The notes beneath the pieces were generated by a model. It did not search any database. It saw nothing but the letters and a program-made list of their open reading frames with translations, and was not told the DNA's origin. This document shows, piece after piece, positions 5,194 to 19,797 of a DNA stretch of 64,000 nt; position 1 is the first letter of the stretch; the number at the start of each line of letters is the position of its first letter. Source of the DNA: Bacillota bacterium (GTDB lineage Bacteria; Bacillota_I; Bacilli_A; RF39; UBA660); NCBI GenBank assembly GCA_015059435.1, contig SVAJ01000001.1, forward strand, positions 479,132-543,131, written 5' to 3'. A program made the translations under genes and the position numbers.

Positions 5194-6289
5194 TTATAGC
5201 TCCTTTTTTAAATTTTCTTCTATAAATAATTCAATATCTCCATCTAGTACTTTTGTAACGTTGCTTGTTTCTGCATTTGTTCTATGATCTTTAACCATAG
5301 AATATGGATGCATAACATAACTTCTTATTTGAGAACCAAACTCTATGTTCATTTGATCTCCTTTTATGTCATTTAATTCCTTCTGTTGTTTTTCTAATTC
5401 TAATAATAACAATTTATTTTTTAATACTTTTAATGCTTGTTCTTTATTTTGAATTTGACTTCTTTCATTTTGACAAGTTACAACTATTTTAGTTGGTAAA
5501 TGGGTAATTCTTACTGCTGAGTCTGTGGTATTTACCCCTTGTCCTCCTGCTCCTGTTGAACGATATACATCTATTTTTAAGTCTTTTTCATCTATTTCTA
5601 TATTGTTGTTTTGTTCTATCTCAGGTGTTATATCTATTGATGCAAATGATGTATGGCGACGATTATTTGAATCAAAAGGAGAAAGTCTAACTAAACGATG
5701 TACTCCTTTTTCATTTTTTAAATAACCATATGCATTAGTACCCTTTACTTCAATAGTTGCACTCTTTATACCTGCTTCTTCTCCTGCTTGATAATCAAGA
5801 ATATTTATTTTGTAGTTGTTTTTTTCACACCATCTTGTATACATTCTATATAACATCATCGCCCAGTCACAAGCTTCTGTTCCACCTGCTCCTGAGTGCA
5901 CTTCTAAAATGCAATTATTTTTATCATATGGTCCACTTAGATATATATTTAAAGATACTTCTTCTAGTGTTTTTTCAATACTAGGTATTTCTTCATTAAT
6001 TATATCTAGCATATCTTTATCTTCTTCTGTTAAAGATGATAATAATTCTAAGTTTGAAGTTATTTTCTTGTCTAAATCAATAACTTCAGAAGTTAGTTTC
6101 TTTAAATCATTCATTTCTGAAATAACTTGTTCACTATTTTCTTTATTATCCCAGAAATTAGGTTTTGACATTTCTTGTTCTAGTTCTTCTATTCTTTTTA
6201 GTTTACTATCAATGTCAAAGTGACCTCCATAGTTCTTTTGTTTTTATATGCATTTCTTCTAAATTTCTTATTAATTCTTTTGTTTCCAT
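5194..6289 (-). CDS. prfB: peptide chain release factor 2, expressed through a programmed +1 ribosomal frameshift
   Basis: The 325-aa ORF carries the RF2 SPF motif (RLSPFDSNNRRHTSF) and the GGQ motif. A 24-codon upstream ORF (ATG at 6289, METKELIRNLEEMHIKTKELWRSL) ends in CTT TGA C, with the SD-like GGAGGT just 5'. Shifting +1 at that site gives a continuous 364-aa RF2. Confidence 0.9.
6214..6220 (-). promoter_or_regulatory. prfB programmed +1 frameshift site CUU UGA C with upstream internal SD GGAGG
   Basis: The minus strand reads tggaggtca CTT TGA C, which is the classic RF2 autoregulatory recoding site. Confidence 0.85.
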
Positions 6290-6478
6290 ATATCCTCTTT
6301 TCTATTTTAATCAATATTTCTAAATTTATACTTATACCGTAACATATTAAGTAAATAATATCAAATTAATTTTTTTGTATATTATTTTAAAATACTGCAT
6401 ATATTATTATTGAGGAAGGTTCACTAGATAATGTGAAGATCCTCTGTATATAGATTAGGAGCCATTAGGCTCCTTTTT

Positions 6479-7837
6479 TTATATTTTTTCAATTATTTCA
6501 TGGGCAGCTTTTTTACCTGCTTCCATAGCAAGTATAACAGTAGCAGCTCCTGTTACTATATCTCCTCCTGCATATACATTTTCTAGAGAAGTTTTTGATT
6601 CTTCTACTACTATTAGACCTCTATCATCTAATTTTATATCACTATATTTTAAAGCTTCATGATTAGGAGAAGTTCCTAAAGCCATTACTACCATATCACA
6701 ATCTACTTTATGAAGTGATTCTTCTTTTTCAGATACACTTCTTCGTCCATCTTCACCAGCTTCTCCTAGTTCCATATCAACGACATTCATACCAATAACA
6801 TTATTATTATCATCAGTTAAAATTTCCACAGGATTTGTTAACAAGTTGAAAATTATCTGTTCTTCTTTAGCATGTTCTACTTCTTCTTTTCTTGCTGGTA
6901 ATTCTTCTTCACTACGTCTATACATTAGATGAGTTTCAATACCTAATCTTTTTAATGATCTAACTGCATCCATGGCAACATTTCCTCCACCAATAACATA
7001 GGCTACTTTAGCTTTTTTGATTGGTGTTTTTGAATCTTCTTTATAAGCATTCATCAAATTAATACGTGTTAATATTTCATTTGCAGAGAACACTCCATTA
7101 GCATCTTCTCCAGGAATATTCATAAATTTTGGAAGCCCTGCTCCTGTACCTAAGAATATGGCATCATATTCTTTTTTTAATTCATCTATTGTAATGGCAT
7201 TACCTACAGGTACATCAGTTTTTATTTCTACTCCAAGTTCTTTTAGTTTATTAACTTCATTTTCAACTATTCTTTTTGGTAATCTAAATTCTGGTATACC
7301 ATATGTTAGTACTCCTCCGGCTTTATGTAGGACTTCATATATCGTTACTTGAAAACCTTCTTTAGCAAGTTCATAAGCGCAACTTAATCCTGATGGTCCA
7401 CTACCTACTACGGCAACTTTTTTACCATTAGATTCTTTTTTACTTACTGAAGTTAAATTATCTTTTATCGCTCTATCTGCAACATAACGTTCTAGAGAAC
7501 CAATGGCAATAGCGTCACTTTTAAATCCTTTAATACACATCTTTTCACATTGTTTTTCTTGTGGACAAACTCTTCCGCATACGGCAGGAAGGGATGAAGA
7601 TAGGGAAATTATCTCATAAGCTTCCTTGATATTATTTTCTTTTATAGCTTTTATAAATTCTGGTATTTGAATATTTACTGGACATCCTTTTACACATCTA
7701 GGATTAGCGCAGTGTAGGCATCTTGAAGCTTCCTTTAATGCTTCTTCATCATTATAACCATAACTTACTTCTTCAAAATTAGTAACTCTAGATTCTGGAG
7801 ATTGGACTCTCATTTTAACCTTTGTATCATTATTCAT
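6479..7837 (-). CDS. nfnB: NADPH-dependent glutamate synthase beta chain-like oxidoreductase (NfnB/GltD/SudA-like)
   Basis: 452 aa. N-terminal Fe-S cysteine clusters (CLHCANPRCVKGCP) and an FAD/NAD Rossmann motif (VAVVGSGPSGLSCA). Paired with a PyrK-like subunit. Confidence 0.7.
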   Translation of the reverse strand: MNNDTKVKMRVQSPESRVTNFEEVSYGYNDEEALKEASRCLHCANPRCVKGCPVNIQIPEFIKAIKENNIKEAYEIISLSSSLPAVCGRVCPQEKQCEKMCIKGFKSDAIAIGSLERYVADRAIKDNLTSVSKKESNGKKVAVVGSGPSGLSCAYELAKEGFQVTIYEVLHKAGGVLTYGIPEFRLPKRIVENEVNKLKELGVEIKTDVPVGNAITIDELKKEYDAIFLGTGAGLPKFMNIPGEDANGVFSANEILTRINLMNAYKEDSKTPIKKAKVAYVIGGGNVAMDAVRSLKRLGIETHLMYRRSEEELPARKEEVEHAKEEQIIFNLLTNPVEILTDDNNNVIGMNVVDMELGEAGEDGRRSVSEKEESLHKVDCDMVVMALGTSPNHEALKYSDIKLDDRGLIVVEESKTSLENVYAGGDIVTGAATVILAMEAGKKAAHEIIEKI

Positions 7838-8663
7838 GGTTAGCCTCCATTTGTTTCATTTTTTCTTGTTCTTCTTCTTTGTAAGTATTTAATCTTTTTA
7901 ATGCTTTTTCAAAATTTACTTTATGGCCATCAAATTCTGGTCCATGGATACATGCAAATTTTGTTTTACCTTCTACTTCACAACGGCAAGCTCCACACAT
8001 ACCACTACCATCTACCATAATAGGGTTCATACTAACTATTGTTTTTAAATTATATTTCTTAGTTAAGTCACAAACATTTTTCATCATTATTACTGGACCT
8101 ATTGCGACGCATATGTCATATTTTTTTATATTTTCTTCAAGTATTGTAGTTACAAAACCTTTAGTACCAAAGCTACCATCATCAGTTGCGTACATTACAT
8201 TTTTTGAAACATCTTCTATTTTATCTTGTATCAATAACAACTCTTTAGATCTAGCTCCATATATTACATCTACATCTATTCCTTTTTCTTTTAAATATTT
8301 AACTTGTGGATAAACGGGAGCTATTCCTACTCCACCTGCTACATAGACTATTTTTTTATTTTTAAACTCATCAATGTTTGCACATATTTCATTTGGATTA
8401 CCAAGAGGTCCTGTTACTGAGAATAGTTCATCATTAGTTTTACTTAATTCCTTTGTAGATGCTCCTACTACTTGATAGATTACTGAAAGTATTCCTTTTT
8501 CTTGATCATAGTCATAAATAGTTAAAGGAATTCTTTCACTATCCTCTTTAGCCATTAATATTACAAATTGTCCTGGCATAGCTTTATTAACTACTAGTGG
8601 TGCTTCTAGCTCCATTTCAAAAGAATTTTCATTTAGTTGTTCATTTTTTAATATCTTATACAT
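7830..8663 (-). CDS. nfnA: ferredoxin-NADP reductase-like small subunit (NfnA/SudB/PyrK-like) with 2Fe-2S site
   Basis: 277 aa. FAD/NAD-binding fold with C-terminal CGACRC...C, and an 8-nt overlap with nfnB. Confidence 0.7.
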   Translation of the reverse strand: MYKILKNEQLNENSFEMELEAPLVVNKAMPGQFVILMAKEDSERIPLTIYDYDQEKGILSVIYQVVGASTKELSKTNDELFSVTGPLGNPNEICANIDEFKNKKIVYVAGGVGIAPVYPQVKYLKEKGIDVDVIYGARSKELLLIQDKIEDVSKNVMYATDDGSFGTKGFVTTILEENIKKYDICVAIGPVIMMKNVCDLTKKYNLKTIVSMNPIMVDGSGMCGACRCEVEGKTKFACIHGPEFDGHKVNFEKALKRLNTYKEEEQEKMKQMEANHE

Positions 8664-8717
8664 ATGATCCCTACCTTCTATATATTATATTATAACATAT
8701 TCATAATATAAAAAAAT

Positions 8718-8746
8718 AAAATATTCTAAACAATTTAGAATATTTT
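8718..8746 (-). terminator. intrinsic terminator: 13-bp perfect inverted repeat AAAATATTCTAAA-caa-TTTAGAATATTTT, T-run on the minus strand
   Basis: Perfect palindrome read directly from the sequence, downstream of gene 8802..9422. Confidence 0.6.
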
Positions 8747-8801
8747 ATATATGTTTTATTCTTTTTAATGAATTGTATGTACATTTTTTGTGATTAAAAG
8801 C

Positions 8802-9422
8802 CTATATTTTTATGTTATCTATAGTAGGTAATTCCTTAGATTCAATTAATTTTTGTCTTTGTTTTATTACTAAGTCTTTTACCTTTTTAACATTTTCTAT
8901 TGAAACTAGATTTACAAATGAAAGATTAGTTTTATCTGGGTTAATCATATTTTTACCAATTGTCTTTATCCCTTCATTCTCATTTAAATACTCTACTGAA
9001 AGAATTAAGTCTCCATACTTTTTCTTTACATTTTCAGTTTCAACAATACTATAATTAACTAAGTATCCATACCAAACTTCTTTTTTTCTACCTTTATAAA
9101 CTATAACTCTTTTATCTGTTATACAATATTCATCTTTTTTAACTTTTATATTCATTAAAAATAACTTACTTATAATACTATAGGCACCTAAGACACCAAA
9201 TAGCGCTACCGCTAAAAAGATTACTATAAATCCTAGGCTAGTACCACTTTCTCCATCGCCTATTCCATGAGTCACACAAAATATCATTATTGTCTGAACT
9301 ACTAGAGCAAATACTACCAAGAATATTTCACCTGATATATCTTTACTTCTATTTTCAGGATTTGGTTTACCAGTCCATATTATTTTTTCATTATCTCTTA
9401 AACATTCATTAAAATTATACAT
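8802..9422 (-). CDS. membrane protein with two TM segments and a bPH_2/YdbT-like PH domain
   Basis: 206 aa. Two hydrophobic helices followed by the motif CITDKRVIVYKG, typical of bacterial PH domains. Confidence 0.4.
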   Translation of the reverse strand: MYNFNECLRDNEKIIWTGKPNPENRSKDISGEIFLVVFALVVQTIMIFCVTHGIGDGESGTSLGFIVIFLAVALFGVLGAYSIISKLFLMNIKVKKDEYCITDKRVIVYKGRKKEVWYGYLVNYSIVETENVKKKYGDLILSVEYLNENEGIKTIGKNMINPDKTNLSFVNLVSIENVKKVKDLVIKQRQKLIESKELPTIDNIKI

Positions 9423-9443
9423 AATTAATTCTCCTCTTTTTAT

Positions 9444-9466
9444 TTATCCACATAATTTGTGGAAAT
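9444..9466. repeat. inverted DnaA-box-like palindrome TTATCCACA-taatt-TGTGGAAAT, directly upstream of the RBS of gene 8802..9422
   Basis: TTATCCACA is a perfect DnaA-box consensus. Its partner half sits inverted 5 nt away. Confidence 0.5.
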
Positions 9467-9496
9467 TTATTCACTATCTTTGATTAAATATTTCTA

Positions 9497-10339
9497 TTAT
9501 ATTAATATATCAACTATTATTCCTAGTATAATTCCTGTGAAATAAATAATTGATGTGATCATAATATTTTCTTTCATGTTTTTGTTTGTTTTAAATAATA
9601 ATAAGATACCTAAACCGCTTCCAGTAAGTAGGCCAGCAAGCATCATACCAACACTTATCATATTTGATAAATATAACTCTGTTATTATAACACTACCTGC
9701 ACAATTAGGAATTAGTCCTACTAGGCTTGCTAAAAAGTAAGTAAAAATGTTCTTATGTAATAGTAAGTTAGAAACATTTTCTTCTCCTATTTTAAATATT
9801 ATTATATTTATTAATACGTTTGCAATTAAGATAAATAGAGTTATATTTAGAGTATGTATAATACTTGAAGTAATTATATTATGTTTATTACAACTACAAT
9901 GATCATGTTCACATACATCATGTATTTGTGATTCTGTAATCTTTTGATTTTTTCTAAATATTAAATCAATTGTGAAACCAACTATTATACCAGCAATTAT
10001 TTTAAAAATAATAATTCTAAGTAGAATTGTTATATCTACTCTTTCGCTTAGCATAATTGGTAGCATTTCATCACTAGTAGATAAAAACACTGCAATTAGA
10101 GTACCCATTGTTATTACTCTTGCTGAAAATAAGTTTGAAGCCATAGAACTAAATCCACATTGTGGTAAAGCTCCTAATAATCCACCTACGATAGGTCCAT
10201 ATTTTTGATTTTCTGAAAGAGCTTTTTGATTTTTCTTAGTCAGTTTATGTTCTATAAATTCTAAAACTATAAACGTAATTAATAAATATGGTATTAGTTT
10301 AATTGTATCTATTAAAGCATCTTGTAAACAATCTAACAT
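9497..10339 (-). CDS. polytopic membrane permease with His/Cys-rich loop (possibly DUF318/ArsP-like metal(loid) transporter)
   Basis: 280 aa, multi-TM, with the loop HDVCEHDHCSCNKHN. It lies 31 nt downstream of the Fur-family gene. Confidence 0.35.
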   Translation of the reverse strand: MLDCLQDALIDTIKLIPYLLITFIVLEFIEHKLTKKNQKALSENQKYGPIVGGLLGALPQCGFSSMASNLFSARVITMGTLIAVFLSTSDEMLPIMLSERVDITILLRIIIFKIIAGIIVGFTIDLIFRKNQKITESQIHDVCEHDHCSCNKHNIITSSIIHTLNITLFILIANVLINIIIFKIGEENVSNLLLHKNIFTYFLASLVGLIPNCAGSVIITELYLSNMISVGMMLAGLLTGSGLGILLLFKTNKNMKENIMITSIIYFTGIILGIIVDILI

Positions 10340-10370
10340 ACTATCACCTTCATTCGATTATTTAATTTAT

Positions 10371-10775
10371 TCACTGTTGTCCTCCTTTTATACATTTTTG
10401 ACATAATCCATTAATAATTACACGTTCTTTATTAGGCTTAAAACTGTGTTCATTAAAAATATGATTAAATAATTCACTAATACAATCACAATCAACATGG
10501 TCTAAGTTTCCACACAACTCACATTTTAAATAGAAATGATTTGTTTTATCACATTCTTTTAAATATTCATAATAAGTTATATTATCCTTAGCTATATATT
10601 TATTTAGCCTGTTAGATTCAACTAATTTATCGATAAAACGATAAATTGTAGTTAAACCAACTTCAGAATTTAGCTCATTATAAATATCTTTTACTGTGAA
10701 TGCTTTTTTTTGATTCTTAATTATATTTAATATTAAATCTTTTTGTTTAGTATTGTATGATTCTAATCTATTCAT
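10371..10775 (-). CDS. Fur-family metalloregulator (Zur/PerR/Fur-like)
   Basis: 134 aa. N-terminal winged-helix region and two CxxC pairs (CELC, CQKC) forming the structural Zn site typical of Fur-family proteins. Confidence 0.75.
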   Translation of the reverse strand: MNRLESYNTKQKDLILNIIKNQKKAFTVKDIYNELNSEVGLTTIYRFIDKLVESNRLNKYIAKDNITYYEYLKECDKTNHFYLKCELCGNLDHVDCDCISELFNHIFNEHSFKPNKERVIINGLCQKCIKGGQQ

Positions 10776-10790
10776 ATTAACCCTCTAAAT

Positions 10791-10805
10791 TGAAAATGAT
10801 TTTCA
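10791..10805. promoter_or_regulatory. Fur-box-like 7-1-7 palindrome TGAAAAT-G-ATTTTCA in the promoter of the Fur-family gene
   Basis: Perfect inverted repeat 16 to 30 nt upstream of the ATG. It has the same architecture as Fur/PerR/Zur boxes (TGATAATnATTATCA). Confidence 0.5.
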
Positions 10806-10841
10806 TATTCGATTATATATCCTTTTTTATATAATTGCAAG

Positions 10842-10870
10842 AAAAAAAGATTATTTATCCAATAATCTTT
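10842..10870 (-). terminator. intrinsic terminator after the DUF1810 gene (AAAGATTAT-ttatcca-ATAATCTTT plus T-run)
   Basis: 9-bp perfect stem flanked by an A-run and T-run. Confidence 0.6.
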
Positions 10871-10880
10871 CTTAGTACTT

Positions 10881-11312
10881 TTATCTGACTCTATAATATC
10901 TATTTTCAAGTAAATCTAATGTCTTCTTATCTTCTTCTCCATCATAAAACTTATCAAGTATTTGCTTAAAAATCTTAGTATCTGGATCTACATAATTAAA
11001 TAATGTCATTGAAGATTGTAGTTTTAAATTATCAGGGTATTTTAAAATATTAGATATTTTTCCATCTTTTTTATATAACTCTTCCGATATTTCAATTAGA
11101 TGTTTTTTTAAATATTCATTCTCTAAATACGCCTGTGCTTCTTCTATTCCATCTATACCGAAAAACTCAGTAAATCCACTCATACCTAGTCCTTTTAATT
11201 GTGGAAATATATACCACATCCAATGTGAACGTTTTTTACCTTTTTTTATTTCTTCTAAAGCAATAGGGTATGCTTGTTCTTGTGCATTAATAAATCTTTC
11301 TAAATTATACAT
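10881..11312 (-). CDS. DUF1810-family protein
   Basis: 143 aa. The N-terminus LERFINAQEQAYPIALEEIKKGKKRSHWMWYIFPQLKGLGMS matches the DUF1810 signature. Confidence 0.6.
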   Translation of the reverse strand: MYNLERFINAQEQAYPIALEEIKKGKKRSHWMWYIFPQLKGLGMSGFTEFFGIDGIEEAQAYLENEYLKKHLIEISEELYKKDGKISNILKYPDNLKLQSSMTLFNYVDPDTKIFKQILDKFYDGEEDKKTLDLLENRYYRVR

Positions 11313-11439
11313 AGCTCTTATTCCTATCTAAATAATTATTTATATAAATTATATCATAGTTTTTTATTTCATTTCTATTATATAGACTTTTTTACAAATG
11401 TACCTTTACATATATTTATATAATTAATCTATTCTTTTG

Positions 11440-12108
11440 TTAAATTTTCACAGGTGGTTTATTTTCGGGAATTTGTGAATATGTACTTTCTAAAAGCTTT
11501 TCTCGGCTCATTTTTGTATAATATACATTTCTTGTATTTCTACCATCTTTATTAAACATATTTATAAAGTTTTCTTTTTGCTCCCTACTCATATCATCAT
11601 TTTCATTATTTAAATCTATTTCAGTCACTTTATCAAATCCTAGAATTTCGTGAACAGCAGTAATATTTTTATTAAAAAATATTGGTGAAACAGCAAATAA
11701 TGTTTGAATAGTAATATCTTCTAAACATATGCTTTGAAGTTTTGATAGAAAATCTTCTAATTGTTCTTTATAAAAATCATAAAAGGCTTCATCACCTAAT
11801 TTATTCTTTAACGGCCTTAAATTCTTTGGTATAAGATGCATATGTAATGTGTTTCCAGTTCTCCCATAACTAAACATTTGATTAACAGGTGTAAATTTGG
11901 TAGATGAGTTTTCTTGTTCTGTTTGTTCTTTAATTTTATTTTTTATAAATTGCTCTATATTTTGTTCTGTTATATTTAATTTCTTTAATGTTAATTTTAA
12001 ATCTTCTTCGTTCATTTTTTCAATAGATACTAATATGTGATTAATAGCAGATTCATTATTTGAGGTTTTTATATTCATCAGTATTCTTTTTATATTTTCT
12101 TTTAACAT
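11440..12108 (-). CDS. hypothetical cytoplasmic protein (orphan)
   Basis: 222 aa with no recognisable domain. It has its own promoter and lies downstream of direct-repeat unit U1. Confidence 0.4.
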   Translation of the reverse strand: MLKENIKRILMNIKTSNNESAINHILVSIEKMNEEDLKLTLKKLNITEQNIEQFIKNKIKEQTEQENSSTKFTPVNQMFSYGRTGNTLHMHLIPKNLRPLKNKLGDEAFYDFYKEQLEDFLSKLQSICLEDITIQTLFAVSPIFFNKNITAVHEILGFDKVTEIDLNNENDDMSREQKENFINMFNKDGRNTRNVYYTKMSREKLLESTYSQIPENKPPVKI

Positions 12109-12153
12109 ATCAATTCACCTTATATTTATTATATCATACTTTCTTAAAGCACA

Positions 12154-12180
12154 AAAAAAGATCTTTGTTGGTCTTTTTCA
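12154..12180 (-). terminator. intrinsic terminator hairpin (AAAGATC/GGTCTTT) with flanking A/T runs
   Basis: Read directly from the sequence. It immediately follows direct-repeat unit U1. Confidence 0.5.
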
Positions 12181-12182
12181 AG

Positions 12183-12202
12183 GTGTCTAAAAGGTATTTA
12201 AT
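12183..12202. repeat. tandem direct repeat U1: GTGTCTAAA-ag-GTATTTAAT (11-bp period)
   Basis: A degenerate copy of the GTATCTAAA x2 motif, 5 nt after the stop codon of gene 12208..12855. Confidence 0.55.
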
Positions 12203-12207
12203 AATAA

Positions 12208-12855
12208 CTATTTTAAAGATTCTATAAAATTATTTATTTCTTCATTGCTATTAAAATGGAAAGCATAACCTTTCTGATTATATCCGACTAGTAATATATC
12301 ATCACCGTTTGCATAATTTAGTGAAAATACACTTTGACTATATACTTGACTTTGATCATTACTATTAACACTTATGTAATATGTAATTGATTTTGGAGGG
12401 CATCCAAACCAAGAATAAGTTATATCCTTATCAATGTATTTTGCTGTTTTTAATTTACTAATAATAGTATCAATTGTATTGTTTGATACCTCGGTATTTT
12501 TTTGTTCTGTCTCGGGTGGTTTATTTGTATTTGTGGTTTTAATTTCACATCTACTTACAAATGTTGTTATACCATCTTTTTGGACCGACGAGTGTAATAA
12601 GCTAGATAACTCCTCGAAATCAAAATCAGGATTTATACTATTATCTGTTGGTTTATTTTCTTCTATTGTTTCTGTATTTTTATCATTATTATCTTCTTTT
12701 AGTTTATTGTTTTCTGCTTGTTTATCAGCGTTGTTATTGCTTATATGTTTGTCATAACAAATGTATCCACTTAATGCTACTGCTAATGTCAATAAAATTA
12801 CAGCTGCAATAACTAGCCTTTTGTTTTCTTTGTTATTTTCTTCCATCTTCATCAA
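12208..12855 (-). CDS. hypothetical membrane-anchored protein (N-terminal TM, Asn/Lys-rich linker, extracytoplasmic domain)
   Basis: 215 aa. TM segment LVIAAVILLTLAVALSGYI, with no recognisable domain. Confidence 0.4.
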   Translation of the reverse strand: MMKMEENNKENKRLVIAAVILLTLAVALSGYICYDKHISNNNADKQAENNKLKEDNNDKNTETIEENKPTDNSINPDFDFEELSSLLHSSVQKDGITTFVSRCEIKTTNTNKPPETEQKNTEVSNNTIDTIISKLKTAKYIDKDITYSWFGCPPKSITYYISVNSNDQSQVYSQSVFSLNYANGDDILLVGYNQKGYAFHFNSNEEINNFIESLK

Positions 12856-12888
12856 CCCTTTCTTTTATATTTTAATTATAACATTTTT

Positions 12889-12922
12889 TTGATAGAAAAA
12901 AAGACCTTTAACGGTCCTTTTC
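12889..12922 (-). terminator. intrinsic terminator (AAAGGACC-gttaaa-GGTCTTTTTTT on the minus strand)
   Basis: Stem with one G-U pair plus a 7-U run. Its T-run overlaps the extended -10 promoter (TGTTATAAT) of gene 12208..12855. Confidence 0.55.
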
Positions 12923-12925
12923 AAT

Positions 12926-12945
12926 GTATCTAAAGGGTATCTAAT
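12926..12945. repeat. tandem direct repeat U2: GTATCTAAA-gg-GTATCTAAT
   Basis: Lies between the stop codon of gene 13020..13826 and a terminator hairpin. Confidence 0.6.
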
Positions 12946-13019
12946 TTATTCAGAAAGTAGCTGGATTTCTCCAACTTTACCTCATCGTAATATCAAAATA
13001 TTCCGATCATTTAAAATAT

Positions 13020-13826
13020 CTATACCCTAGGTTTTATTAATGGATATTTCCTTTTTATATAACCTTTTGTATTACTTATTTTATCTTCTTGGATTTTTAA
13101 TTGTTGTTTTTTTTCTTCTCTTATCTCTTGTCTGAAATCGTATCTAGATGTTAAGTACCAGTCTTCAAAGTCCCAAAATTTAGCGGTACTATACATTTTC
13201 ATAAATGCATAAACTCTCATGTGAGCAGGTAGTGAGAAAAGTTTTTTCTTAGTACTATTACTAAGATTATCTTTCATTAATAAAACATAGTCATCAAATG
13301 ATTTCTTAAATTCTTCAATTACTTCTCCTGAACATCTTTCTATAAATGTATTAAATAATTTTTCTTGATATTCATGATTATCTTGTTTAGTTTCTGTAAA
13401 GCTTTCATTTTTTAGTTCTTCCAATTTAGAATCGATTGTATCAAAATTATAGAATTGTTTAAGTAGTTTATCAGAATCATCAACATGATGATCCCATTTC
13501 CAATCCCATTCACAATTTTCAATTGTTTCATATAATTCAGTTTGAAATTCTTTTTTTCCTTTATTATCCAAACTCTGATAAAATTCTTTAAGTTTGTTAA
13601 TCTGGATAGTTTTAATAGACATTAATTTAAGAATGCTAAACCATCTTCTATAATCGTTTCTTAAATCTATATTCAAAAATTGATACTCTTTGTTAGTTTC
13701 TATTAATTCATTAATATAATCGATTCTTTCCTCCAATGATATGTTATTAAAGCTTTCTATATATTCATTAATAATTCTATCTTTATATTCTTCAATTCTT
13801 TTTCTTAATTCTTCTTTACTTCCCAT
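13020..13826 (-). CDS. hypothetical cytoplasmic protein (orphan, helical, Glu/Lys-rich)
   Basis: 268 aa. No TM segment and no recognisable motif. Confidence 0.4.
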   Translation of the reverse strand: MGSKEELRKRIEEYKDRIINEYIESFNNISLEERIDYINELIETNKEYQFLNIDLRNDYRRWFSILKLMSIKTIQINKLKEFYQSLDNKGKKEFQTELYETIENCEWDWKWDHHVDDSDKLLKQFYNFDTIDSKLEELKNESFTETKQDNHEYQEKLFNTFIERCSGEVIEEFKKSFDDYVLLMKDNLSNSTKKKLFSLPAHMRVYAFMKMYSTAKFWDFEDWYLTSRYDFRQEIREEKKQQLKIQEDKISNTKGYIKRKYPLIKPRV

Positions 13827-13902
13827 ATTAGTTCTCCTGTTGGTTAATTATTATAGACTTTTATCATAAAAAAAGCAATAGTTCATAATATTATTTATTT
13901 TA

Positions 13903-13940
13903 CGAAAAAAAGGACTATTCAATTTTAAAATAGTCTTTTA
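13903..13940 (-). terminator. intrinsic terminator (AAGACTATT-ttaaaattg-AATAGTCC plus T7 on the minus strand)
   Basis: Read directly from the sequence. Confidence 0.55.
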
Positions 13941-13955
13941 AATTCAAATTTCAGG

Positions 13956-13975
13956 GTATCTAAAACGTATCTAAA
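13956..13975. repeat. tandem direct repeat U3: GTATCTAAA-ac-GTATCTAAA (perfect), abutting the stop codon of the methyltransferase gene
   Basis: Two identical 9-mers at 11-bp period, with 0 nt between the motif and the TAA. Confidence 0.65.
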
Positions 13976-14611
13976 TTATTTCGTTTTTCTAGCCTTAATT
14001 AGACTATAATCATCTTTATCAACATTGCTCGAAGTTATTTCTTGAAAGCCAACCCTTTTTAATACTTCTATTTCATGTTCAACAGTAAGTGGTGTATCTA
14101 TATGTCTATGATTTTCTATATTGTTTTCTAGTTCATATAATTGGCCATCTTCTATTTCTTGTGATAAAGCTATTTTGTCACAATTTATGAACTGGCCATT
14201 TTCTTTTAAACAATCATATACCTTTTTATATAGTTTGATTTTTTCTTCTAGTTTGAAATGATGAAGAGCTGATGTAGATATAACTGCATCATAATTATCT
14301 CCAAATTCTACTTCAAAGAAATCACCACATATAGTAGTTACATAATCTGCAAAACTTCTTTTATTTAATTCTTCAAGCATATTTTCGGTAATATCTATGA
14401 CTGTTACCTCAGCACTTGGGAATAATTCAAATACATGAATTAATTCTAGTCCTGTCCCTGCACCCAAGTCTAATATTTTTTTAGTTTCTTTATCTAGGCT
14501 ATCTCCTAATGTCTTTTTGGTTTCCATGTATGTACTATGGACATCATCATAAGAATCTATCTTTTCATTAAAGAATGTTCTTTGCTTTTGATTTCTTTCA
14601 TATAAATTCAT
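13976..14611 (-). CDS. class I SAM-dependent methyltransferase
   Basis: 211 aa. Motif I ILDLGAGTGLE with acidic loop VIDITE. Its start overlaps the TetR gene by 4 nt. Confidence 0.7.
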   Translation of the reverse strand: MNLYERNQKQRTFFNEKIDSYDDVHSTYMETKKTLGDSLDKETKKILDLGAGTGLELIHVFELFPSAEVTVIDITENMLEELNKRSFADYVTTICGDFFEVEFGDNYDAVISTSALHHFKLEEKIKLYKKVYDCLKENGQFINCDKIALSQEIEDGQLYELENNIENHRHIDTPLTVEHEIEVLKRVGFQEITSSNVDKDDYSLIKARKTK

Positions 14612-14613
14612 AA

Positions 14614-15177
14614 TTATATCCCCCTTAAATTAATTTCTATGTTATTTCTGATTAAATCTTTGATTTCTTTATCAGTTAATTTAATACTATTTACACATAA
14701 CTGTGTTGCAATACCATGAGTATAAAATCTTACTTCACGATATACCTTTTTTGCATCTTCTAAAGATATTTTATATTGTTTTACCATTGCATTAATAGTT
14801 TCCATGTTTCTATCAGTATTTAATACTTCGCTTACTGTTCTAGAACCAGCAAGATCTGCCATAAATAATGAAAAGAATACATTTGGTTCTTTTTTTGCAT
14901 AAAAAGCATATGCATAACTTATTGTATATAAATAATCTTTTATATCTATATACTTACGAATAAATGATGAGTAATCTTTCCTTAAATAGAATTTAAGATC
15001 TTCTTTATACATATCAAAGTTTTCATAGTTTTTAAATATTGGCTGTGTTGAACATCCTATATATTTAGCAAGTTCTCTAACTGTTAGATTAGAGTAACCT
15101 TTTTCCTTTATAAATTCAACACTCTTTTCCAATATATCTTCTTTAGAAAACTTAATAGTTCTCGCCATAAACATCAC
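14614..15177 (-). CDS. TetR/AcrR-family transcriptional regulator
   Basis: 187 aa. N-terminal HTH (GYSNLTVRELAKYIGCSTQPIFKNYENFD). Confidence 0.75.
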   Translation of the reverse strand: MMFMARTIKFSKEDILEKSVEFIKEKGYSNLTVRELAKYIGCSTQPIFKNYENFDMYKEDLKFYLRKDYSSFIRKYIDIKDYLYTISYAYAFYAKKEPNVFFSLFMADLAGSRTVSEVLNTDRNMETINAMVKQYKISLEDAKKVYREVRFYTHGIATQLCVNSIKLTDKEIKDLIRNNIEINLRGI

Positions 15178-15191
15178 CTCACATATGTATA

Positions 15192-15209
15192 AAATAACAT
15201 TTGTTATTT
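15192..15209. promoter_or_regulatory. TetR operator candidate O1: AAATAACA-tt-TGTTATTT, overlapping the predicted TSS/-10 (TATATT at 15218..15213)
   Basis: 8-bp perfect inverted repeat. A -35 TTGACA sits at 15241..15236 with a 17-bp spacer. Confidence 0.5.
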
Positions 15210-15246
15210 AATAATATACACTACTTAATAAAATTTGTCAATATAA

Positions 15247-15266
15247 AAAATAACATTTGTTATTTT
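15247..15266. promoter_or_regulatory. TetR operator candidate O2: AAAATAACA-tt-TGTTATTTT, just upstream of the -35
   Basis: A second copy of the same palindrome, centred 58 bp from O1. Confidence 0.5.
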
Positions 15267-15303
15267 ATTTTTAATGATTTAATATGTTTTTTAAGAAAAA
15301 AAC

Positions 15304-15323
15304 GTATCTAAAACGTATCTAAA
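15304..15323. repeat. tandem direct repeat U4: GTATCTAAA-ac-GTATCTAAA (perfect), 81 nt after the secA stop and flanked by A/T runs
   Basis: Identical to U3. It lies upstream of the TetR/methyltransferase operon promoter. Confidence 0.65.
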
Positions 15324-15404
15324 GTGCTTTTTTTGATAAAAATCACTTAAAATGTGGAACAAAGAAAAATCTCGCAATCCCTTTATTTATAAGGGAAAAC
15401 GAGA

Positions 15405-17897
15405 TTATTTACCACAACATTGTTTATATTTTTTGCCACTGCCACATGGACATGGATCATTTCTACCTACTTTTTTTACTCTTTTAGGTTTCTTTTTTGC
15501 AGGTTCACTTTCTGTATCATTAGTTATTTTCTTTTTTGATACTTCTTTTCTTTCAATATTTTGTCTTATTTCTGCTTTTAGTAAGAATACTGATACATCT
15601 TGATCTATTTTTTGTAACATAGCATCAAACATATCGAATCCTTCCATTGTGTATGCTCTTAGTGGATCTTCTTGAGCATATCCTCTTAAGTGAATTCCTT
15701 CTCTTAAATGAGACATTGTATTGATATGTTCCATCCAGTAATTATCTATTACTTGTAGAGTAATTGCTTTTTCAAATTCATTTGTAACTTCTACTGGAAT
15801 TTCTTTTATTTTTTCTTCATATTCAGCTGTTACTAATTTGACTAATTTATCTATTACTTCTTCTGGAGATAACTGGGAAATCTGTTGTTTTTTAATATCA
15901 TTTCTAAGTAAGTTTTCATTAACAAATTCTACTATTTCATTAAAATCTCCATCTGTTAGATATCCTTCTGGAGCTAAATGGGAATTTACTACATCTTCTA
16001 GATGATGTCTAAATGTTGAGATAATCATTTCATGAATTGAATCATTATCTAAGATTTTGTTTCTCTTATCATACATTATTTCTCTTTGATTATTCATTAC
16101 ATCATCGTATTGTAGTAAACTTTTTCTTATATCAAAGTTATTTCCTTCAACTCTTTTTTGTGCAGTTCCAATTGATCTTGTGAATGTTTTTGATTGAATA
16201 GCTTGATCCCCTAGACCCATAGTCTTCATCATTTCACCAATTCTATCTGATCCGAATCTTACCATTAGATCATCTTTCATTGATACGAAGAATTGAGTAT
16301 ATCCAGGATCTCCTTGACGTCCAGAACGTCCACGTAATTGGTTATCAATACGACGTGATTCATGGCGTTCAGTACCAACTACACATAATCCACCTAAATC
16401 TCTTATTTCATCTGATAGTTTAATATCTGTACCACGTCCTGCCATATTAGTTGCGATAGTTACTGATTTTTTTGTACCTATTTTAGAGATTATTTCGGCT
16501 TCACGAGCATGATTTTTTGCATTTAATACTTCATGTGGAATATGAGCTTGTTTCAATAATCCACTTATAAGTTCACTTGTTTCAATAGCTATTGTACCAA
16601 TTAGTACTGGTTGACCTTTTTCGTAACATTCTTTAACAAATTCTATTATTGCTTTATATTTTGCTTCTTTTGTTGCATATACTAAATCTGGTGCATCAAT
16701 ACGAGCAATAGGTCTATTTGTAGGTATTTCTATAACATACATGTTATAAATGTTTCTAAACTCTTCTTCTTCTGTTTTAGCAGTACCTGTCATACCAGAT
16801 AATTTCTTATACATTCTAAATAAATTTTGGAATGTAATAGTAGCTAAAGTTTTAGTTTCTTCATTAATAGTAACTCCTTCTTTAGCTTCTAGAGCTTGAT
16901 GAAGTCCATCTGAGAAAGCTCTTCCTTTCATTAAACGTCCAGTAAATTGATCTACTATTACTACTTCATCATCTTGTACTACATAATCAACATCATTTTT
17001 CATTGAATAATTTGCACGTAGTGCTTGATTTATAAAGTGTACTAATGTTGCGTTATTTATATCATATAAGTTATCTATTTTAAAGAATCTTTCTGCTTTA
17101 TCACTACCATCTTCTGTTAGTGTAACGCTCTTGTTTTTTTCATCATATACATAGTCATCTTCATTTTTTAACCCTTTAACAAATCTATCGGCATCTAAAT
17201 ATAAATTTGCACTATGCATTTCTCCACCTGAAATAATTAATGGAGTTCTTGCTTCATCTATTAATACAGAGTCAACTTCATCGATAATAGCAAAGTTTAG
17301 AGGTCTTTGTACTCTATCTTCACTTCTTATAACCATGTTATCTCTTAAATAGTCAAATCCAATTTCATTATTTGTAGAATATAAAATATCACAATTATAT
17401 GCATCTTGTTTTTCTTTAGCAGTTAATTCTCTTCCATTTACTCCTACTGTTAGTCCTAAAAATCTATAGATTTCTCCCATCCACTGTGCATCACGATTAG
17501 CTAGATATTCATTAACTGTAATTACATGAACACCTTTTCCTGTTAATGCATTTAAATAACCTGGTAAAACACAAGTTAAAGTTTTTCCTTCACCTGTTTT
17601 CATTTCAGCTATATTACCATAATGAATAGCAAGACCACCAAGTATTTGAACATAGAAATGCTTTTCTCCAATTACACGAAAAGCAGCTTCTCTAGCAGTA
17701 GCAAATGCTTCTACTAGTATATCTTCTAATGTTTCTCCTTTTAATAATCTTTCTTTAAATTCATCAGTTTTATCCTGTAATTCTGTATCTGTTAATTTAG
17801 AGTATTCTTCATCTAAAGCCATTACTTCGTCTGCAATACGTCTAAATTTTTTTAACTCTTTATATTCATGATCTAATAATCTCTTTATTATATTCAT
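15405..17897 (-). CDS. secA: preprotein translocase ATPase SecA
   Basis: 830 aa. Walker A MKTGEGKT and a C-terminal zinc finger CPCGSGKKYKQCCGK. Confidence 0.95.
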   Translation of the reverse strand: MNIIKRLLDHEYKELKKFRRIADEVMALDEEYSKLTDTELQDKTDEFKERLLKGETLEDILVEAFATAREAAFRVIGEKHFYVQILGGLAIHYGNIAEMKTGEGKTLTCVLPGYLNALTGKGVHVITVNEYLANRDAQWMGEIYRFLGLTVGVNGRELTAKEKQDAYNCDILYSTNNEIGFDYLRDNMVIRSEDRVQRPLNFAIIDEVDSVLIDEARTPLIISGGEMHSANLYLDADRFVKGLKNEDDYVYDEKNKSVTLTEDGSDKAERFFKIDNLYDINNATLVHFINQALRANYSMKNDVDYVVQDDEVVIVDQFTGRLMKGRAFSDGLHQALEAKEGVTINEETKTLATITFQNLFRMYKKLSGMTGTAKTEEEEFRNIYNMYVIEIPTNRPIARIDAPDLVYATKEAKYKAIIEFVKECYEKGQPVLIGTIAIETSELISGLLKQAHIPHEVLNAKNHAREAEIISKIGTKKSVTIATNMAGRGTDIKLSDEIRDLGGLCVVGTERHESRRIDNQLRGRSGRQGDPGYTQFFVSMKDDLMVRFGSDRIGEMMKTMGLGDQAIQSKTFTRSIGTAQKRVEGNNFDIRKSLLQYDDVMNNQREIMYDKRNKILDNDSIHEMIISTFRHHLEDVVNSHLAPEGYLTDGDFNEIVEFVNENLLRNDIKKQQISQLSPEEVIDKLVKLVTAEYEEKIKEIPVEVTNEFEKAITLQVIDNYWMEHINTMSHLREGIHLRGYAQEDPLRAYTMEGFDMFDAMLQKIDQDVSVFLLKAEIRQNIERKEVSKKKITNDTESEPAKKKPKRVKKVGRNDPCPCGSGKKYKQCCGK

Positions 17898-18920: not shown

Positions 18921-19007
18921 TTCAATCATAGATAAATTCATTTTATAGAAATTCCATTTTTTCCTTGTTTTTCAATGCTATATTGTTTTCGAAAACAAGG
19001 TGATTGT

Positions 19008-19601: not shown

Positions 19602-19649
19602 GCATAAATACTTTTGTATTTAGCAAATATATGTAAAGGAGGTAAATGT

Positions 19650-19769
19650 ATGAAAAGATTCGCTGGATTACTTGCTGCTGTTGCTATGCTTGCTACTGGT
19701 GCTGCTTCTATGGGATGTATCTGGTATTTTATTGATGAACCAGAAGCAAACGGATTATTTAGAGACTAA
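19650..19769 (+). CDS. agrD: AgrD-like autoinducing peptide precursor, 39 aa, not in the ORF track
   Basis: RBS AAAGGAGGT is 6 nt upstream of the ATG. Product: MKRFAGLLAAVAMLATGAASMGCIWYFIDEPEANGLFRD. It has an amphipathic leader, a Cys-containing core CIWYF and an acidic tail IDEPEA, which is the AgrD architecture. Confidence 0.65.
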   Translation: MKRFAGLLAAVAMLATGAASMGCIWYFIDEPEANGLFRD

Positions 19770-19797
19770 AAAAACTAGGTATTATCCTAGTTTTTTT
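19768..19797. terminator. bidirectional terminator AAAAAAACTAGG-tattat-CCTAGTTTTTTT between agrD and the convergent kinase gene
   Basis: Perfect palindrome with an A-run and a T-run. It overlaps the last codons of the kinase ORF. Confidence 0.6.

Follow-up and report, generated by a model that had tools for sequence, protein, structure and literature searches.

Direct repeats behind secA in an uncultured Bacilli genome as putative arm-type attachment sites marking seams in a row of acquired genes

The gene row between secA and prfB

The window, the whole 64-kb stretch of DNA analyzed here, contains a gap of 9.2 kb between secA and prfB, which measures ~1.5 kb in locus L085 and ~2.8 kb in locus L107 of related genomes. 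Its features are the following, from secA towards prfB; U1 to U4 are the copies of a repeated motif.

15405..15449, minus strand: last 45 nt of secA, PCGSGKKYKQCCGK*; putative common core of an attachment site, recurring between cassettes elsewhere
15368..15406, minus strand: secA terminator hairpin (RNA fold -18.6 kcal/mol, z -5.3; 0/200 shuffles as good)
15304..15323, minus strand: U4, TTTAGATACGTTTTAGATAC, 11-bp period, starting 81 nt past the secA stop codon
13976..15177, minus strand: cargo of unit 1, a TetR-like regulator and a SAM methyltransferase, with its own promoter and two palindromic operators
14614-15177, minus strand: the TetR-like regulator (Pfam TetR_N, 7e-05)
13976-14611, minus strand: the SAM methyltransferase (Pfam Methyltransf_25, 1.8e-17)
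13956..13975, minus strand: U3, exact motif directly after the methyltransferase stop codon (0 nt gap); apparent core-less seam
13913..13935, minus strand: terminator-like hairpin after U3 (RNA fold, ~-10 kcal/mol)
13020..13826, minus strand: cargo of unit 2, a 268-aa protein without family match
12926..12945, minus strand: U2, exact motif 75 nt past the stop codon; apparent core-less seam
12897..12922, minus strand: terminator hairpin after U2 (RNA fold, -13.8 kcal/mol, z -2.7)
12208..12855, minus strand: cargo of unit 3, a 215-aa protein with an N-terminal membrane anchor and without significant family match
12183..12202, minus strand: U1, degenerate motif with 2 mismatches, 5 nt past the stop codon; apparent core-less seam, decaying
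12154..12179, minus strand: terminator hairpin after U1 (RNA fold, -7.3 kcal/mol)
6172..12108, minus strand: remaining secA-prfB interval, with genes for a 222-aa protein, DUF1810, Fur, an ArsP_2 permease, a 206-aa protein and two oxidoreductase subunits

The motif, GTATCTAAA-NN-GTATCTAA, matches exactly at 12926, 13956 and 15304 and with two mismatches at 12183, and all four copies lie on the plus strand, antisense to the genes; the coordinates and sequences given in an earlier note on this DNA were correct. It is a real element. Three exact matches compare with 0.00 expected and four matches at up to two mismatches with 0.08 expected, numbers that 0 of 100 shuffles reached in either case, while at up to three mismatches the excess loses significance (4 vs 1.14 expected; 6 of 100 shuffles). 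That the motif occurs nowhere else in the 64 kb is nearly true: one additional single 9-mer is found at 4846, inside a coding region and in a palindromic context, and the 9-mer is absent from the other strand of the whole window.

The order described earlier, stop codon, motif and terminator, applies to U1, U2 and U3, where the motif is followed by an A-tract, the hairpin and a T-tract. It does not apply to U4: RNA folding places the strong secA terminator hairpin, with a T-run at ~15360-15367, between the secA stop codon and the motif, and gives no stable hairpin 3' of the motif. A scan for consensus terminators missed all of these hairpins owing to their short stems. The view that the hairpins conserve structure and not sequence is only partly right, since the motif-plus-hairpin modules of U1 and U2 are homologous to each other. 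In other species, the real secA is followed by a module with which both share homology (86-88% over ~50 nt); U2 with its hairpin is 79-86% identical to the module of L033 and L051, and the U1 module 85-88% identical to that of L033 and L092.

Rows of small units behind secA in related genomes

A scan for the motif, using one genome per species, returned at least 120 loci; among the matches listed, ~85 are MAGs of low-GC gut or rumen Bacilli, "Erysipelotrichaceae" or "Tenericutes," often with two or three copies of the motif per 8 kb. Downstream of secA, related uncultured low-GC Bacilli from gut and rumen have rows of units of one to three genes (median unit size 1.86 kb, mostly one gene), split by orphan copies of the last 45 nt of secA. 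The window segment 15449-15296 recurs two to four times per locus, and an ORF of ~830 aa homologous to the secA of the window ends 55-84 nt before the motif in ~22 loci. The fragment recurs in orphan form between cassettes, with 97 copies counted in the loci, and the homology among copies begins abruptly at CCATGTGG; in alignments, the secA terminator hairpin is kept after them. About 65 orphans, although without a usable upstream ORF, continue to encode PCGSG(K/R)KYK(Q/M/N)C(C/H)GK* despite changes at up to 12 of the 45 nt, mostly synonymous, and were functional until recently.

The earlier note predicted that the number of cassettes between secA and prfB would vary, and the unit count indeed differs between species. 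Where different genomes have a unit in common, the homology extends from the beginning of one secA fragment to the end of the following one, and each motif copy stays associated with the gene on its side. A NUDIX unit is 96% identical between L019 and L051, where secA is 73% identical, and its rank in the row differs; the same comparison between L042 and L048 gave 69% identity for secA and 94.5% for the unit. Units have evidently been transferred between species. Unit 1 of the window has a counterpart in L095, 92.7% identical from the start of the fragment onward, which lies at least 6.8 kb deep in the array and behind an orphan fragment. In L099 and L074, genes for ArsP_2 and the 222-aa protein are found again, within an array or next to one. 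No motif or secA fragment is left in 6172..12108, and the genes of this interval are probably older units with decayed seams.

Pairs of TTAGATAC flank the fragment at fixed distances, conserved to within 1-2 nt. A pair with 11-bp period lies at +53 to +92 of 59 of the 89 fragments (modes +55 and +80-82), and a pair with 12-bp period at -101 to -159 of 41 of the 89 (modes -127 and -122), a count to be read knowing that real secA genes account for ~29 of the 89 and can have no upstream pair. The upstream pairs start a median of 39 nt past the stop codon of the cargo. Position 1 of the fragment shows linkage with the upstream flank, positions 42-45 with the downstream one, which places the presumed crossover inside the 45 nt, and no more finely than that. 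The distance of U4 from the core agrees with the mode of 80-82 nt at which the pair follows a fragment.

These distances bear on whether the UUAGAUAC repeats act in RNA at transcript 3' ends, as a signal for stability or processing just before the terminator, a function that the earlier note had also considered. The motif lies between stop codon and terminator, and is thus transcribed, at three window copies (U1-U3) and in the modules behind secA of L033, L051 and L092. However, it lies past the strong terminator at U4 and at most related junctions, dozens of them, it is found in both orientations, it has neither an Rfam match nor a conserved pairing partner, and the constancy of its spacing to the secA fragment is a constraint at the level of DNA. 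We regard a role in RNA as hardly credible.

Prophages and integrases at the same putative core

Two prophage contigs end at the same site. At the left end of IMGVR_UViG_3300028833_003330, secA with its terminal fragment is followed, at +81 nt, by the pair with 11-bp period, 37 nt, a convergent integrase gene (PHROG integrase match, 6e-63) and a CI-like repressor; at the right end, the pair with 12-bp period lies exactly 127 nt upstream of a second fragment. The second contig (L147 plus L269) has the same layout. The position equivalent to U4 in the prophages is between the core and the integrase gene, and U4 is most likely the repeat pair of a downstream arm adjoining an intact core.

The earlier note had suggested an operator for winged-helix regulators of the OmpR/PhoB type, which resembles the motif in having two identical sites about one helical turn apart. 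An extended -10 promoter usually follows within 25-100 nt, and an agr-type two-component system with a LytTR regulator is encoded 4-6 kb away. Yet the distance to the -10 varies (~24 to 100 nt), with no fixed phasing to -35/-10 and often with a terminator in between. The motif can have either orientation to the next gene, and it is also found on the far side of units, downstream of the cargo and directly before orphan secA fragments, and at both ends of the prophages, including beside the 3' end of the convergent integrase gene, a place without any promoter that it could control. The binding sites of LytTR regulators are 9-bp repeats with spacers of ~12 bp, a geometry that differs from that of the motif. 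We therefore rejected the OmpR/PhoB-type operator, and consider it very improbable that any direct-repeat transcription factor, OmpR/PhoB-like or other, uses the motif to co-regulate the promoters of acquired genes or to block read-through.

The integrases fall into groups. Those of group A (37-58% mutual identity) co-occur with TTAGATAC; those of group B, in the same arrays, co-occur with pairs of GTTTGCA, GTTTGTAAA or TTTGTCCAC, which in L073 and L062 lie ~125-150 nt upstream and ~60 nt downstream of the same secA core, the upstream sites of L073 being an inverted pair. Judging from these sequences, repeat type co-varies with integrase type at one core. In the group B element L119, the far arm carries a TTAGATAAG pair and the arm beside the integrase gene carries GTTTGTAAA repeats; either the element is composite or the pairing of repeat and integrase is not strict. 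The predominance of the TTAGATAC class is partly a matter of ascertainment, as the genome loci were found through the motif and cover the matches listed only. We also assembled a second set of loci through the integrase protein instead of the motif. All three loci with an integrase at least 59% identical to the query, including the query's own contig, have the fragment and the motif after the integrase stop codon. Seven more distant relatives (~39-44% identity) have other 11- or 12-bp pairs (TTAGGTGG, TTAGGCGC, TTAGGCGA) 8-61 nt past the stop codon, and the fragment is present in none of the seven. The N terminus of the L119 integrase matches Pfam Arm-DNA-bind_4 with 25.7 bits, above the cutoff of 22.3, under which the group A integrases remain (15-20.9 bits). 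The catalytic domain is related to that of Tn1549 Int, with matches to 6EMZ and relatives at ~1e-18.

We propose, with a probability of about 75%, that TTAGATAC-N2/3-T-TTAGATAC forms the arm-type sites of a phage-type attachment site whose core is the 3' end of secA, and that the copies in the window mark seams. Temperate phages and small integrative elements would use this site, entering the 3' end of secA by recombination within its last 45 nt, which element and chromosome have in common. secA would stay intact because the incoming element brings its own copy of the core. The P arm would carry the pair with 12-bp period, ~122-127 nt upstream of the core, and the P' arm the pair with 11-bp period, 55 or ~81 nt downstream. 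The repeats are probably bound by the arm-binding domain at the N terminus of a Tn916/Tn1549-like tyrosine integrase, which would bridge arm and core and assemble the recombination complex in the manner of lambda Int; this binding is our inference. Repeated insertion at one core, with head-to-tail stacking, would give rise to the rows, and most elements would have shrunk to, or been built as, units of one to three genes that keep both arms and lack the integrase. Such units may still be mobile.

This arrangement resembles the arm sites of heterobivalent tyrosine integrases (lambda attP P1/P2 and P'1-P'3; Tn916/Tn1549) in several respects: each arm has short direct repeats, placed at a fixed distance from a core that the chromosome has too; one set lies between core and integrase gene; the repeats change with the integrase; and the enzyme has an Arm-DNA-bind-type N terminus and a Tn1549-related catalytic domain. 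It differs in its target, the 3' end of secA, where the 45-nt shared core recodes the SEC-C zinc motif, in its arm periods of 12 and 11 bp, and in its variable orientation; binding is here a prediction. The motif is inverted relative to the core, or the pair itself is inverted, in L062, L068, L080, L056 and L073, which is unusual for classical arm sites and counts against the arm reading.

The repeats could instead be accessory sites of the same attachment site bound by another protein, either an excisionase (recombination directionality factor) or a DNA-bending host nucleoid protein. Direct repeats with a period of 10-12 bp are also typical of Xis-type binding, as in lambda attP, the TTAGATAC class is common to many species, L119 combines its TTAGATAAG pair with other repeats beside a group B integrase gene, and a weak helical phasing of A/T tracts in the P-arm spacers suggests architectural bending. 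We consider this unlikely. Lambda has Xis sites on one arm only, whereas the pair is present on both arms here; around one and the same core, another integrase group comes with another repeat class; the genes of distant integrase relatives are directly followed by pairs of their own; and the N terminus of the integrases is of the arm-binding type.

Apparent core-less seams and comparison with known systems

The four copies in the window most likely mark seams of a row of separately acquired genes behind secA. Hence, the suggestion of the earlier note that the motif is the junction mark of a site-specific cassette insertion is supported in essence, with the refinement that the crossover region would be the last 45 nt of secA and the motif an accessory (arm) site. 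Three of the four copies apparently are seams without the crossover region. At U3, U2 and U1, the core and its spacers would have been deleted between the two flanking repeat pairs, each deletion leaving one hybrid pair between the stop codon of a gene and the terminator and promoter of the next unit. U3 appears to have a P-arm context on its left and a P'-arm terminator module on its right, the right flank being homologous to the P' arm that follows a fragment in L083 and also to L068 and L010. One worked example of core loss can be read from the NUDIX unit: in L019 it ends with the gene, the pair, ~95 nt and the secA fragment, and in L051 its counterpart ends with the gene, the pair and the P' flank of the next unit, without the fragment. 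U1-U3 match this fragment-less form exactly. Their origin by repeat-to-repeat deletion is inferred by analogy with other genomes, because the window contains no integrase and no secA fragment besides that of secA itself.

Units bounded by the motif alone, with no fragment nearby, in the window, L020, L051 and L054 would also be expected if the motif were itself the crossover site, units inserting at the pair and regenerating it on both sides as a core site or target duplication. This is quite improbable: the prophages and most units are bounded by the 45-nt fragment, with the pairs inside the element ends; the shared units run from fragment to fragment and the motif moves with the gene on its side; linkage switches from upstream to downstream inside the fragment; and the L019/L051 comparison derives a fragment-less seam from one that contains the fragment.

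Arm sites around a secA core would place the rows close to systems of tandem accretion and of cis-mobilizable elements (CIMEs), for which we compared ICESt1-type elements, streptococcal IMEs (PMC5704250), the Dehalococcoides ssrA islands (PMC3146451) and SCC at orfX. There too, elements are lined up behind a single essential gene present in one copy, with a direct repeat of the 3' end of this gene at the border of each; many have retained att sites but no integrase, the same site serves prophages and relatives that do carry an integrase, and the distal part of the row is probably fixed (PMC5704250, section 2.3; PMC3146451). The secA units differ in being far smaller, in being all co-directional with the target gene, each with its own promoter and with both complete arms kept, and in that the integrase partner of the main class is phage-borne. 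We did not find secA as an attachment site in the literature searched. With integron arrays, the rows share a one-directional series of cassettes of one to three genes and very diverse functions, adjoining a fixed site, common to several species at differing ranks and without a recombinase of their own. In contrast to integrons, no IntI integrase, attI site or Pc promoter lies beside the secA array, the sites are phage-type att sites with arms instead of single-strand attC hairpins, and every unit comes with a promoter and a terminator of its own. As tandem accretion of integrated elements, the rows would be of a known kind; what is unusual here is that the accretion is single-gene, integron-like and lineage-wide.

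Motif copies in the window and in other genomes

The window has a G+C content of 26.6%, and nearly all its genes lie on the minus strand. Four copies of the 20-bp motif GTATCTAAA-NN-GTATCTAA, which reads TTAGATAC-NN-T-TTAGATAC on the coding strand, were found, all in the same orientation:

U1, 12183..12202, + strand, motif with two mismatches
U2, 12926..12945, + strand, exact motif
U3, 13956..13975, + strand, exact motif
U4, 15304..15323, + strand, exact motif, downstream of secA

The earlier note had located these copies correctly and was right about their significance. Three exact matches compare with 0.00 expected and four matches with at most two mismatches with 0.08, and none of 100 shuffles reached either count. 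The only further occurrence of the 9-mer in the window is a single copy within a coding region, at 4846. The same note had placed every copy between a stop codon and a terminator, a context that holds for three copies and fails for the fourth, because U4 differs from the others. At U1-U3, the motif starts 5, 75, and 0 nt after the stop codon, respectively, and is followed by an A-tract/hairpin/T-tract and then by the promoter of the next gene; the U1 and U2 modules are homologous to each other, hairpins included. At U4, in contrast, RNA folding places the terminator hairpin of secA (-18.6 kcal/mol, z -5.3) between the secA stop codon and the motif, with no stable hairpin 3' of it. A consensus scan for terminators and promoters detected no terminator in this region because the stems are short, and we used folding instead.

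Two functions that had been proposed for the motif are not supported. As an operator of the OmpR/PhoB type, it would have to act from 24-100 nt away from the -10 element with terminators in between, in both orientations, and in some copies with no promoter downstream. As an RNA element, it has no stable fold of its own, and Rfam gave nothing at the motif in window 11-19 kb (E-value mode) or in 16 related loci (gathering mode).

When one genome per bacterial species was scanned for the exact pattern, at least 120 loci were found; these were ascertained through the motif itself, their ORFs are mechanical calls, and MAG contigs can be mis-binned. Judging from the database size, the high-GC and other unrelated matches are at the level of chance for a 17-base pattern in ~600 Gb. 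Among the matches listed, ~85 loci are on contigs at 24-31% G+C from uncultured gut or rumen MAGs (labeled "Bacilli," "Erysipelotrichaceae," "Tenericutes/Acholeplasmatales," or "Clostridium sp. CAG:710"), often with 2-3 motif copies spaced by 1-3.5 kb. In ~22 of the loci listed, a ~830-aa ORF homologous to the window secA ends 55-84 nt upstream of the motif, which is therefore a conserved post-secA feature across many species.

Some likenesses to the motif probably have other explanations. Three high-GC loci (L007 5440-5480, L011 1175-1215, and L098; Actinomycetota, Mycobacterium arosiense) carry TTAGATAC three times in tandem at an 11-bp period (gcTTAGATACaagTTAGATACtatTTAGATAC); a conserved gene (M-S/A-T-T...PNLDPT-PAP) starts 15-25 nt further downstream. 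These repeats exceed chance because they are too AT-rich for contigs of 67-70% G+C, and they are probably an unrelated operator with the same 8-mer. A literature search with the 8-mer returned only 16S primer sequences, since GGATTAGATACCC belongs to the 790 loop of 16S rRNA. TTAGATACC(C) equals the universally conserved segment of this loop (GGATTAGATACCCTGG), and we treat the likeness as a coincidence.

The region has other features of interest. Two copies of the palindrome AATAACAAATGTTATT (15195-15268) flank its best promoter match (TTGACA-17-TATATT, 15241-15213), immediately 5' of the TetR-like gene, and probably serve as operators for that gene, unrelated to the motif. In prfB, a classical programmed +1 frameshift site (6214-6220, minus strand; GGAGG TCA CTT TGA C, an SD-like element followed by CUU UGA C) accounts for the absence of the first ~25 codons from the listed ORF (5194-6171). 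An agr-type quorum-sensing locus immediately precedes the cold-shock, hpf, and secA genes.

The agr-type locus, window 18975-21801 (domains from Pfam)
18975-19601, + strand, AgrB
beside AgrB, a 39-aa ORF that could be an AgrD-like peptide precursor
19782-21077, - strand, HATPase_c_5 histidine kinase
21058-21801, - strand, LytTR response regulator

The secA fragment and its flanking repeat pairs

When the window was compared by BLAST with the motif loci, the segment 15449-15296, which includes the last 45 nt of secA, the hairpin, the spacer, and the motif, was found in 2-4 copies per locus in many genomes. Across ten aligned copies, homology starts abruptly at (T)CCATGTGG, takes in the stop codon, hairpin, spacer, and motif, and ends there. 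The 45 nt (window 15405..15449, minus strand), hereafter the secA fragment, encode the SEC-C zinc motif PCGSGKKYKQCCGK*. The loci listed contain 97 fragments, of which ~65 are orphans, i.e., copies with no usable ORF upstream. Most of these have just 0-43 in-frame codons before the stop, often with no start codon, which led us to reject stand-alone small SEC-C proteins as their source. The orphans still encode PCGSG(K/R)KYK(Q/M/N)C(C/H)GK*, with at most 12 of the 45 nt changed. Such substitutions are mostly synonymous and leave the peptide intact, and we dropped the template and variable repeats of a diversity-generating retroelement on these grounds; no reverse transcriptase was present among the proteins examined. 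Most simply, each orphan would recently have been a working secA end, which recombination at this site then carried along or displaced.

Locus maps revealed arrays with a recurring order after secA: fragment, hairpin, spacer, motif, promoter, one to three genes, and the next fragment, with nearly all genes in the direction of secA. Among the loci listed, 29 have at least two fragments, giving 47 fragment-to-fragment units with a median length of 1.86 kb (range, 0.85-4.8 kb) and one (24 units), two (16), or three (6) genes. Their cargo is diverse: 486 ORFs fall into 327 clusters, including GNAT acetyltransferases, NUDIX hydrolases, methyltransferases, ABC transporters, a GH10 xylanase, and HTH regulators. 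The suggestion that the motif marks cassette junctions largely stands, as it lies at the seams of acquired units and the distance from secA to prfB differs among species (~1.5 kb in L085, ~2.8 kb in L107, and 9.2 kb, with 12 genes, in the window).

Across the 89 fragments with enough flanking sequence in the loci listed, the repeats keep fixed distances. Downstream, a TTAGATA[ACG] pair with an 11-bp period (the P' arm) occurs 53-92 nt after the stop in 59 of 89 fragments (modes, +55 and +80-82). Upstream, a pair with a 12-bp period (the P arm) occurs 101-159 nt before the fragment in 41 of 89 (modes, -127 and -122), at a median of 39 nt past the last cargo stop codon; ~29 of the 89 cannot carry it because real secA coding sequence occupies this position. 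The ~105-nt spacer of the P arm often has phased A-tracts or a ~10-nt repeat (GGGCAAAAAAGGGCAAAAAAGGGC... / ..AAGTGC.. each 10-11 nt; e.g., L243 12122-12228, a prophage right end; 42 junctions). The weak peaks in its A/T-tract autocorrelation at lags of 9-11 and 20-23, one and two helical turns, are no more than suggestive, and this phasing may reflect intrinsic bending or more protein sites. After some fragments, the downstream position is occupied by other repeat classes (TTTAGATAAG, TTTAGAACC, CTACATACG, CTGGAGCCA, TGTTTGCAA, GTTTGTAAA, or TTTGTCCAC). Three of these follow orphan fragments in loci where no matching integrase was found, and may represent other integrase specificities acting on the same secA core.

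Repeat classes 55-85 nt after orphan fragments
CTGGAGCCA: L030 1106, L045 7061, L068 5465
CTACATACG: L061 5129, L080 5866
TTTAGAACC: L048 1837

Where different genomes have a unit in common, its homology runs from the beginning of one fragment to the end of the following one. Therefore, the hairpin, the spacer, and the 11-bp pair travel with the downstream gene and the 12-bp pair with the upstream one. In a linkage analysis of 96 junctions, position 1 of the fragment was linked to the upstream flank (0.96 versus a background of 0.69), positions 16-17 and 42-45 to the downstream flank (0.85-0.97 versus 0.53-0.68), and positions 9-15 to neither. This switch places the exchange inside the 45 nt, probably towards their left part, the resolution being that between position 1 and positions 16-45. 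In such an exchange, the incoming element would supply a new end to secA.

Integrases and prophages at the secA end

One ORF cluster of the motif loci, present in 9 of those listed, is a tyrosine recombinase (Pfam Phage_integrase, 5.8e-27, plus Phage_int_SAM_3) and splits into two groups.

Integrases of the motif loci
Group A: ~370 aa; L129, L157, L102/L078, L032; paired with TTAGATAC
Group B: ~420-455 aa; L039, L073, L119, L062, L091, L099

Group B genes are directly 3' of a fragment inside arrays (e.g., L039, L073, and L119). The repeats after this fragment have an 11-bp period and are of the GTTTGCA, GTTTGTAAA, or TTTGTCCAC type instead of TTAGATAC. L073 and L062 have further GTTTGCA-type sites ~125-150 nt before the distal fragment of the element; in L073, these form an inverted pair. 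The repeat class covaries with the integrase group, at the same positions around the same secA core, with the caveat that the far arm of L119 (group B) carries TTAGATAAG.

The clearest view of the ends comes from phage contigs. The left end of IMG/VR contig 3300028833_003330 (40.1 kb) has secA, its fragment, the 11-bp pair at +81 nt, and, 37 nt further, a convergent integrase gene (PHROG integrase, 6e-63). Beyond it are a CI-like repressor, a short ORF called Cro-like by its position only, and replication-like genes, including an SSB-like protein read from the translation. At the right end, a 12-bp-period pair is exactly 127 nt upstream of a second fragment, and the offsets give a prophage of ~37 kb. 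A second prophage contig, 3300029134_000104, has the same layout. We therefore read the motif pairs as the internal portions of attL and attR; on the phage attP, they would occupy both arms, with the secA fragment as the common core. The two prophage contigs and the set of 89 fragments both have sites in arms that flank a core duplicated at the two ends of an element. No overlap was found between two phage contigs of one metagenome that would have joined them into a free attP. BLAST searches of the secA end plus motif against GenBank phages and PLSDB plasmids returned generic SEC-C coding matches only, none extending into the motif.

A search with the integrase protein instead of the motif gave three loci at least 59% identical to the query (one being the query's own contig), and they have the fragment and motif after the integrase stop. 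Seven distant relatives (~39-44% identity) have TTAGGTGG, TTAGGCGC, or TTAGGCGA pairs with 11- or 12-bp periods 8-61 nt after the stop, and the fragment was found in 0 of these 7. The N termini of the integrases match Pfam Arm-DNA-bind_4 at 25.7 bits in L119, above the 22.3 cutoff, and at 15-20.9 bits in group A, below it, the E-values of so short a domain being marginal. We infer that this domain would bind the repeats. The closest solved structure to the catalytic domain is Tn1549 Int; IntI4 matches the array integrases weakly, over part of this domain.

Two further observations extend this picture. At the right end of the L243 prophage, next to its P arm, three genes in the direction of secA (5621-10707) encode a helicase/endonuclease-like protein of 850 aa, a DNA methyltransferase-like protein of 477 aa, and a 364-aa protein without assigned function. 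They could be a defense or restriction-modification cargo module in an attachment-site-proximal position. In L102 (1715-2859) and L078 (2484-3310), 8 nt separate the end of a group A integrase gene from a TTAGATACCATTTAGATAC pair; no secA fragment is detectable near it, and the upstream gene encodes a 668-aa protein other than SecA. This integrase family may use a second target site too.

Core-less seams, apparent movement of units, and known systems

How did three of the window copies come to lack a core? The window has no fragment except secA's own, and no integrase. U4, 81 nt past the secA stop, is at the standard P'-arm position by an intact core. U1-U3 combine two contexts: to the left, they follow a cargo stop codon by 0-75 nt, as P-arm pairs do; to the right, their CCTGAAA/TTGAAAA and terminator share homology with the P' arm found after real secA ends or fragments in L033, L051, L092, and L083. 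A NUDIX unit present in two genomes is instructive. In L019, it ends with the gene, the 12-bp pair, ~95 nt, and a fragment; in L051, with the gene, a pair, and the P' flank of the next unit, with no fragment. Deletion between two directly repeated pairs that flank a core would likely have removed it and fixed the units in place. Similar core-less seams were found in L020 and L054. U1, with its two mismatches, looks like a decaying seam, and the unmarked genes from there down to prfB are probably older units.

Comparisons between species suggest that units move. L019 and L051 have secA genes 73% identical; their NUDIX units are 96% identical and differ in rank within the row. For L042 and L048, identity is 69% for secA and 94.5% for a common unit. 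prfB is as diverged as secA. The TetR-methyltransferase unit of the window is 92.7% identical to one in L095, where three or more other units and an orphan fragment of the C-H variant precede it. When the 268-aa protein and Hpf were looked up by exact sequence to find presence/absence polymorphism among strains, only the same arrangement came up.

Which known systems does this resemble? In mechanism, it resembles the attachment sites of lambda or Tn916, with their arm-type sites. On the scale of the genome, the parallel is the tandem accretion of integrative and cis-mobilizable elements at the 3' end of a conserved gene. Known examples of such accretion have been reviewed (PMC5704250), and the Dehalococcoides ssrA islands have been described (PMC3146451). 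Units bounded by direct repeats of the target 3' end are present in the related loci, while in the window only the secA-proximal site keeps the fragment. Integrase-bearing elements occupy the same site (group A prophages; group B elements in L039, L073, and L119). The arrays differ from known accretion systems in that the target is secA, most seams keep both arms, the main class is probably driven by a phage integrase, and the units are very small and uniform, making the row resemble an integron. We rejected an integron, since no IntI, attI, or Pc promoter was found next to the array, junctions are linear fragments with arms rather than attC sites, and each unit has its own promoter; the array integrases match Phage_integrase and Phage_int_SAM_3 with an arm-type N terminus. 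Our searches of the available literature, an incomplete sample, turned up neither a report of secA as an attachment site or cassette hot spot nor one of these arrays. Hence, we consider the motif explained and the surrounding system a variation on a known theme, in which the integrase would bind the repeats and units without an integrase may still be mobile today.

The secA rows could be more than graveyards of decayed prophages. We give roughly one chance in three to their being a working gene-capture platform, a functional analogue of the integron, across this uncultured lineage of gut and rumen Bacilli. Single-gene units would then keep a complete phage-type att site, with both arm pairs and the secA core, and integrases of temperate phages with the same site would excise, carry, and re-insert them in trans. 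Phages could in this way shuttle host-beneficial genes between species, one cassette per move.

These results have practical and biological consequences. An orphan motif now has an explanation, as it marks the seams of horizontally acquired genes. It also provides an annotation rule for this lineage: an orphan fragment, with a 12-bp pair at about -125 and an 11-bp pair at +55 or +81, marks out mobile units, the ends of prophages, and hot spots of integration in organisms that are uncultured and mostly known from MAGs. The compact, well-defined attachment site, a 45-nt core in an essential gene plus two arm pairs, is a candidate tool for site-specific integration in bacteria that are hard to manipulate. 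To our knowledge, Firmicutes-type bacteria lack classical integrons. If units without integrases are still mobilized by phage integrases, the secA rows would be a phage-driven counterpart of the integron in such bacteria, and a route of gene flow between species in the gut.
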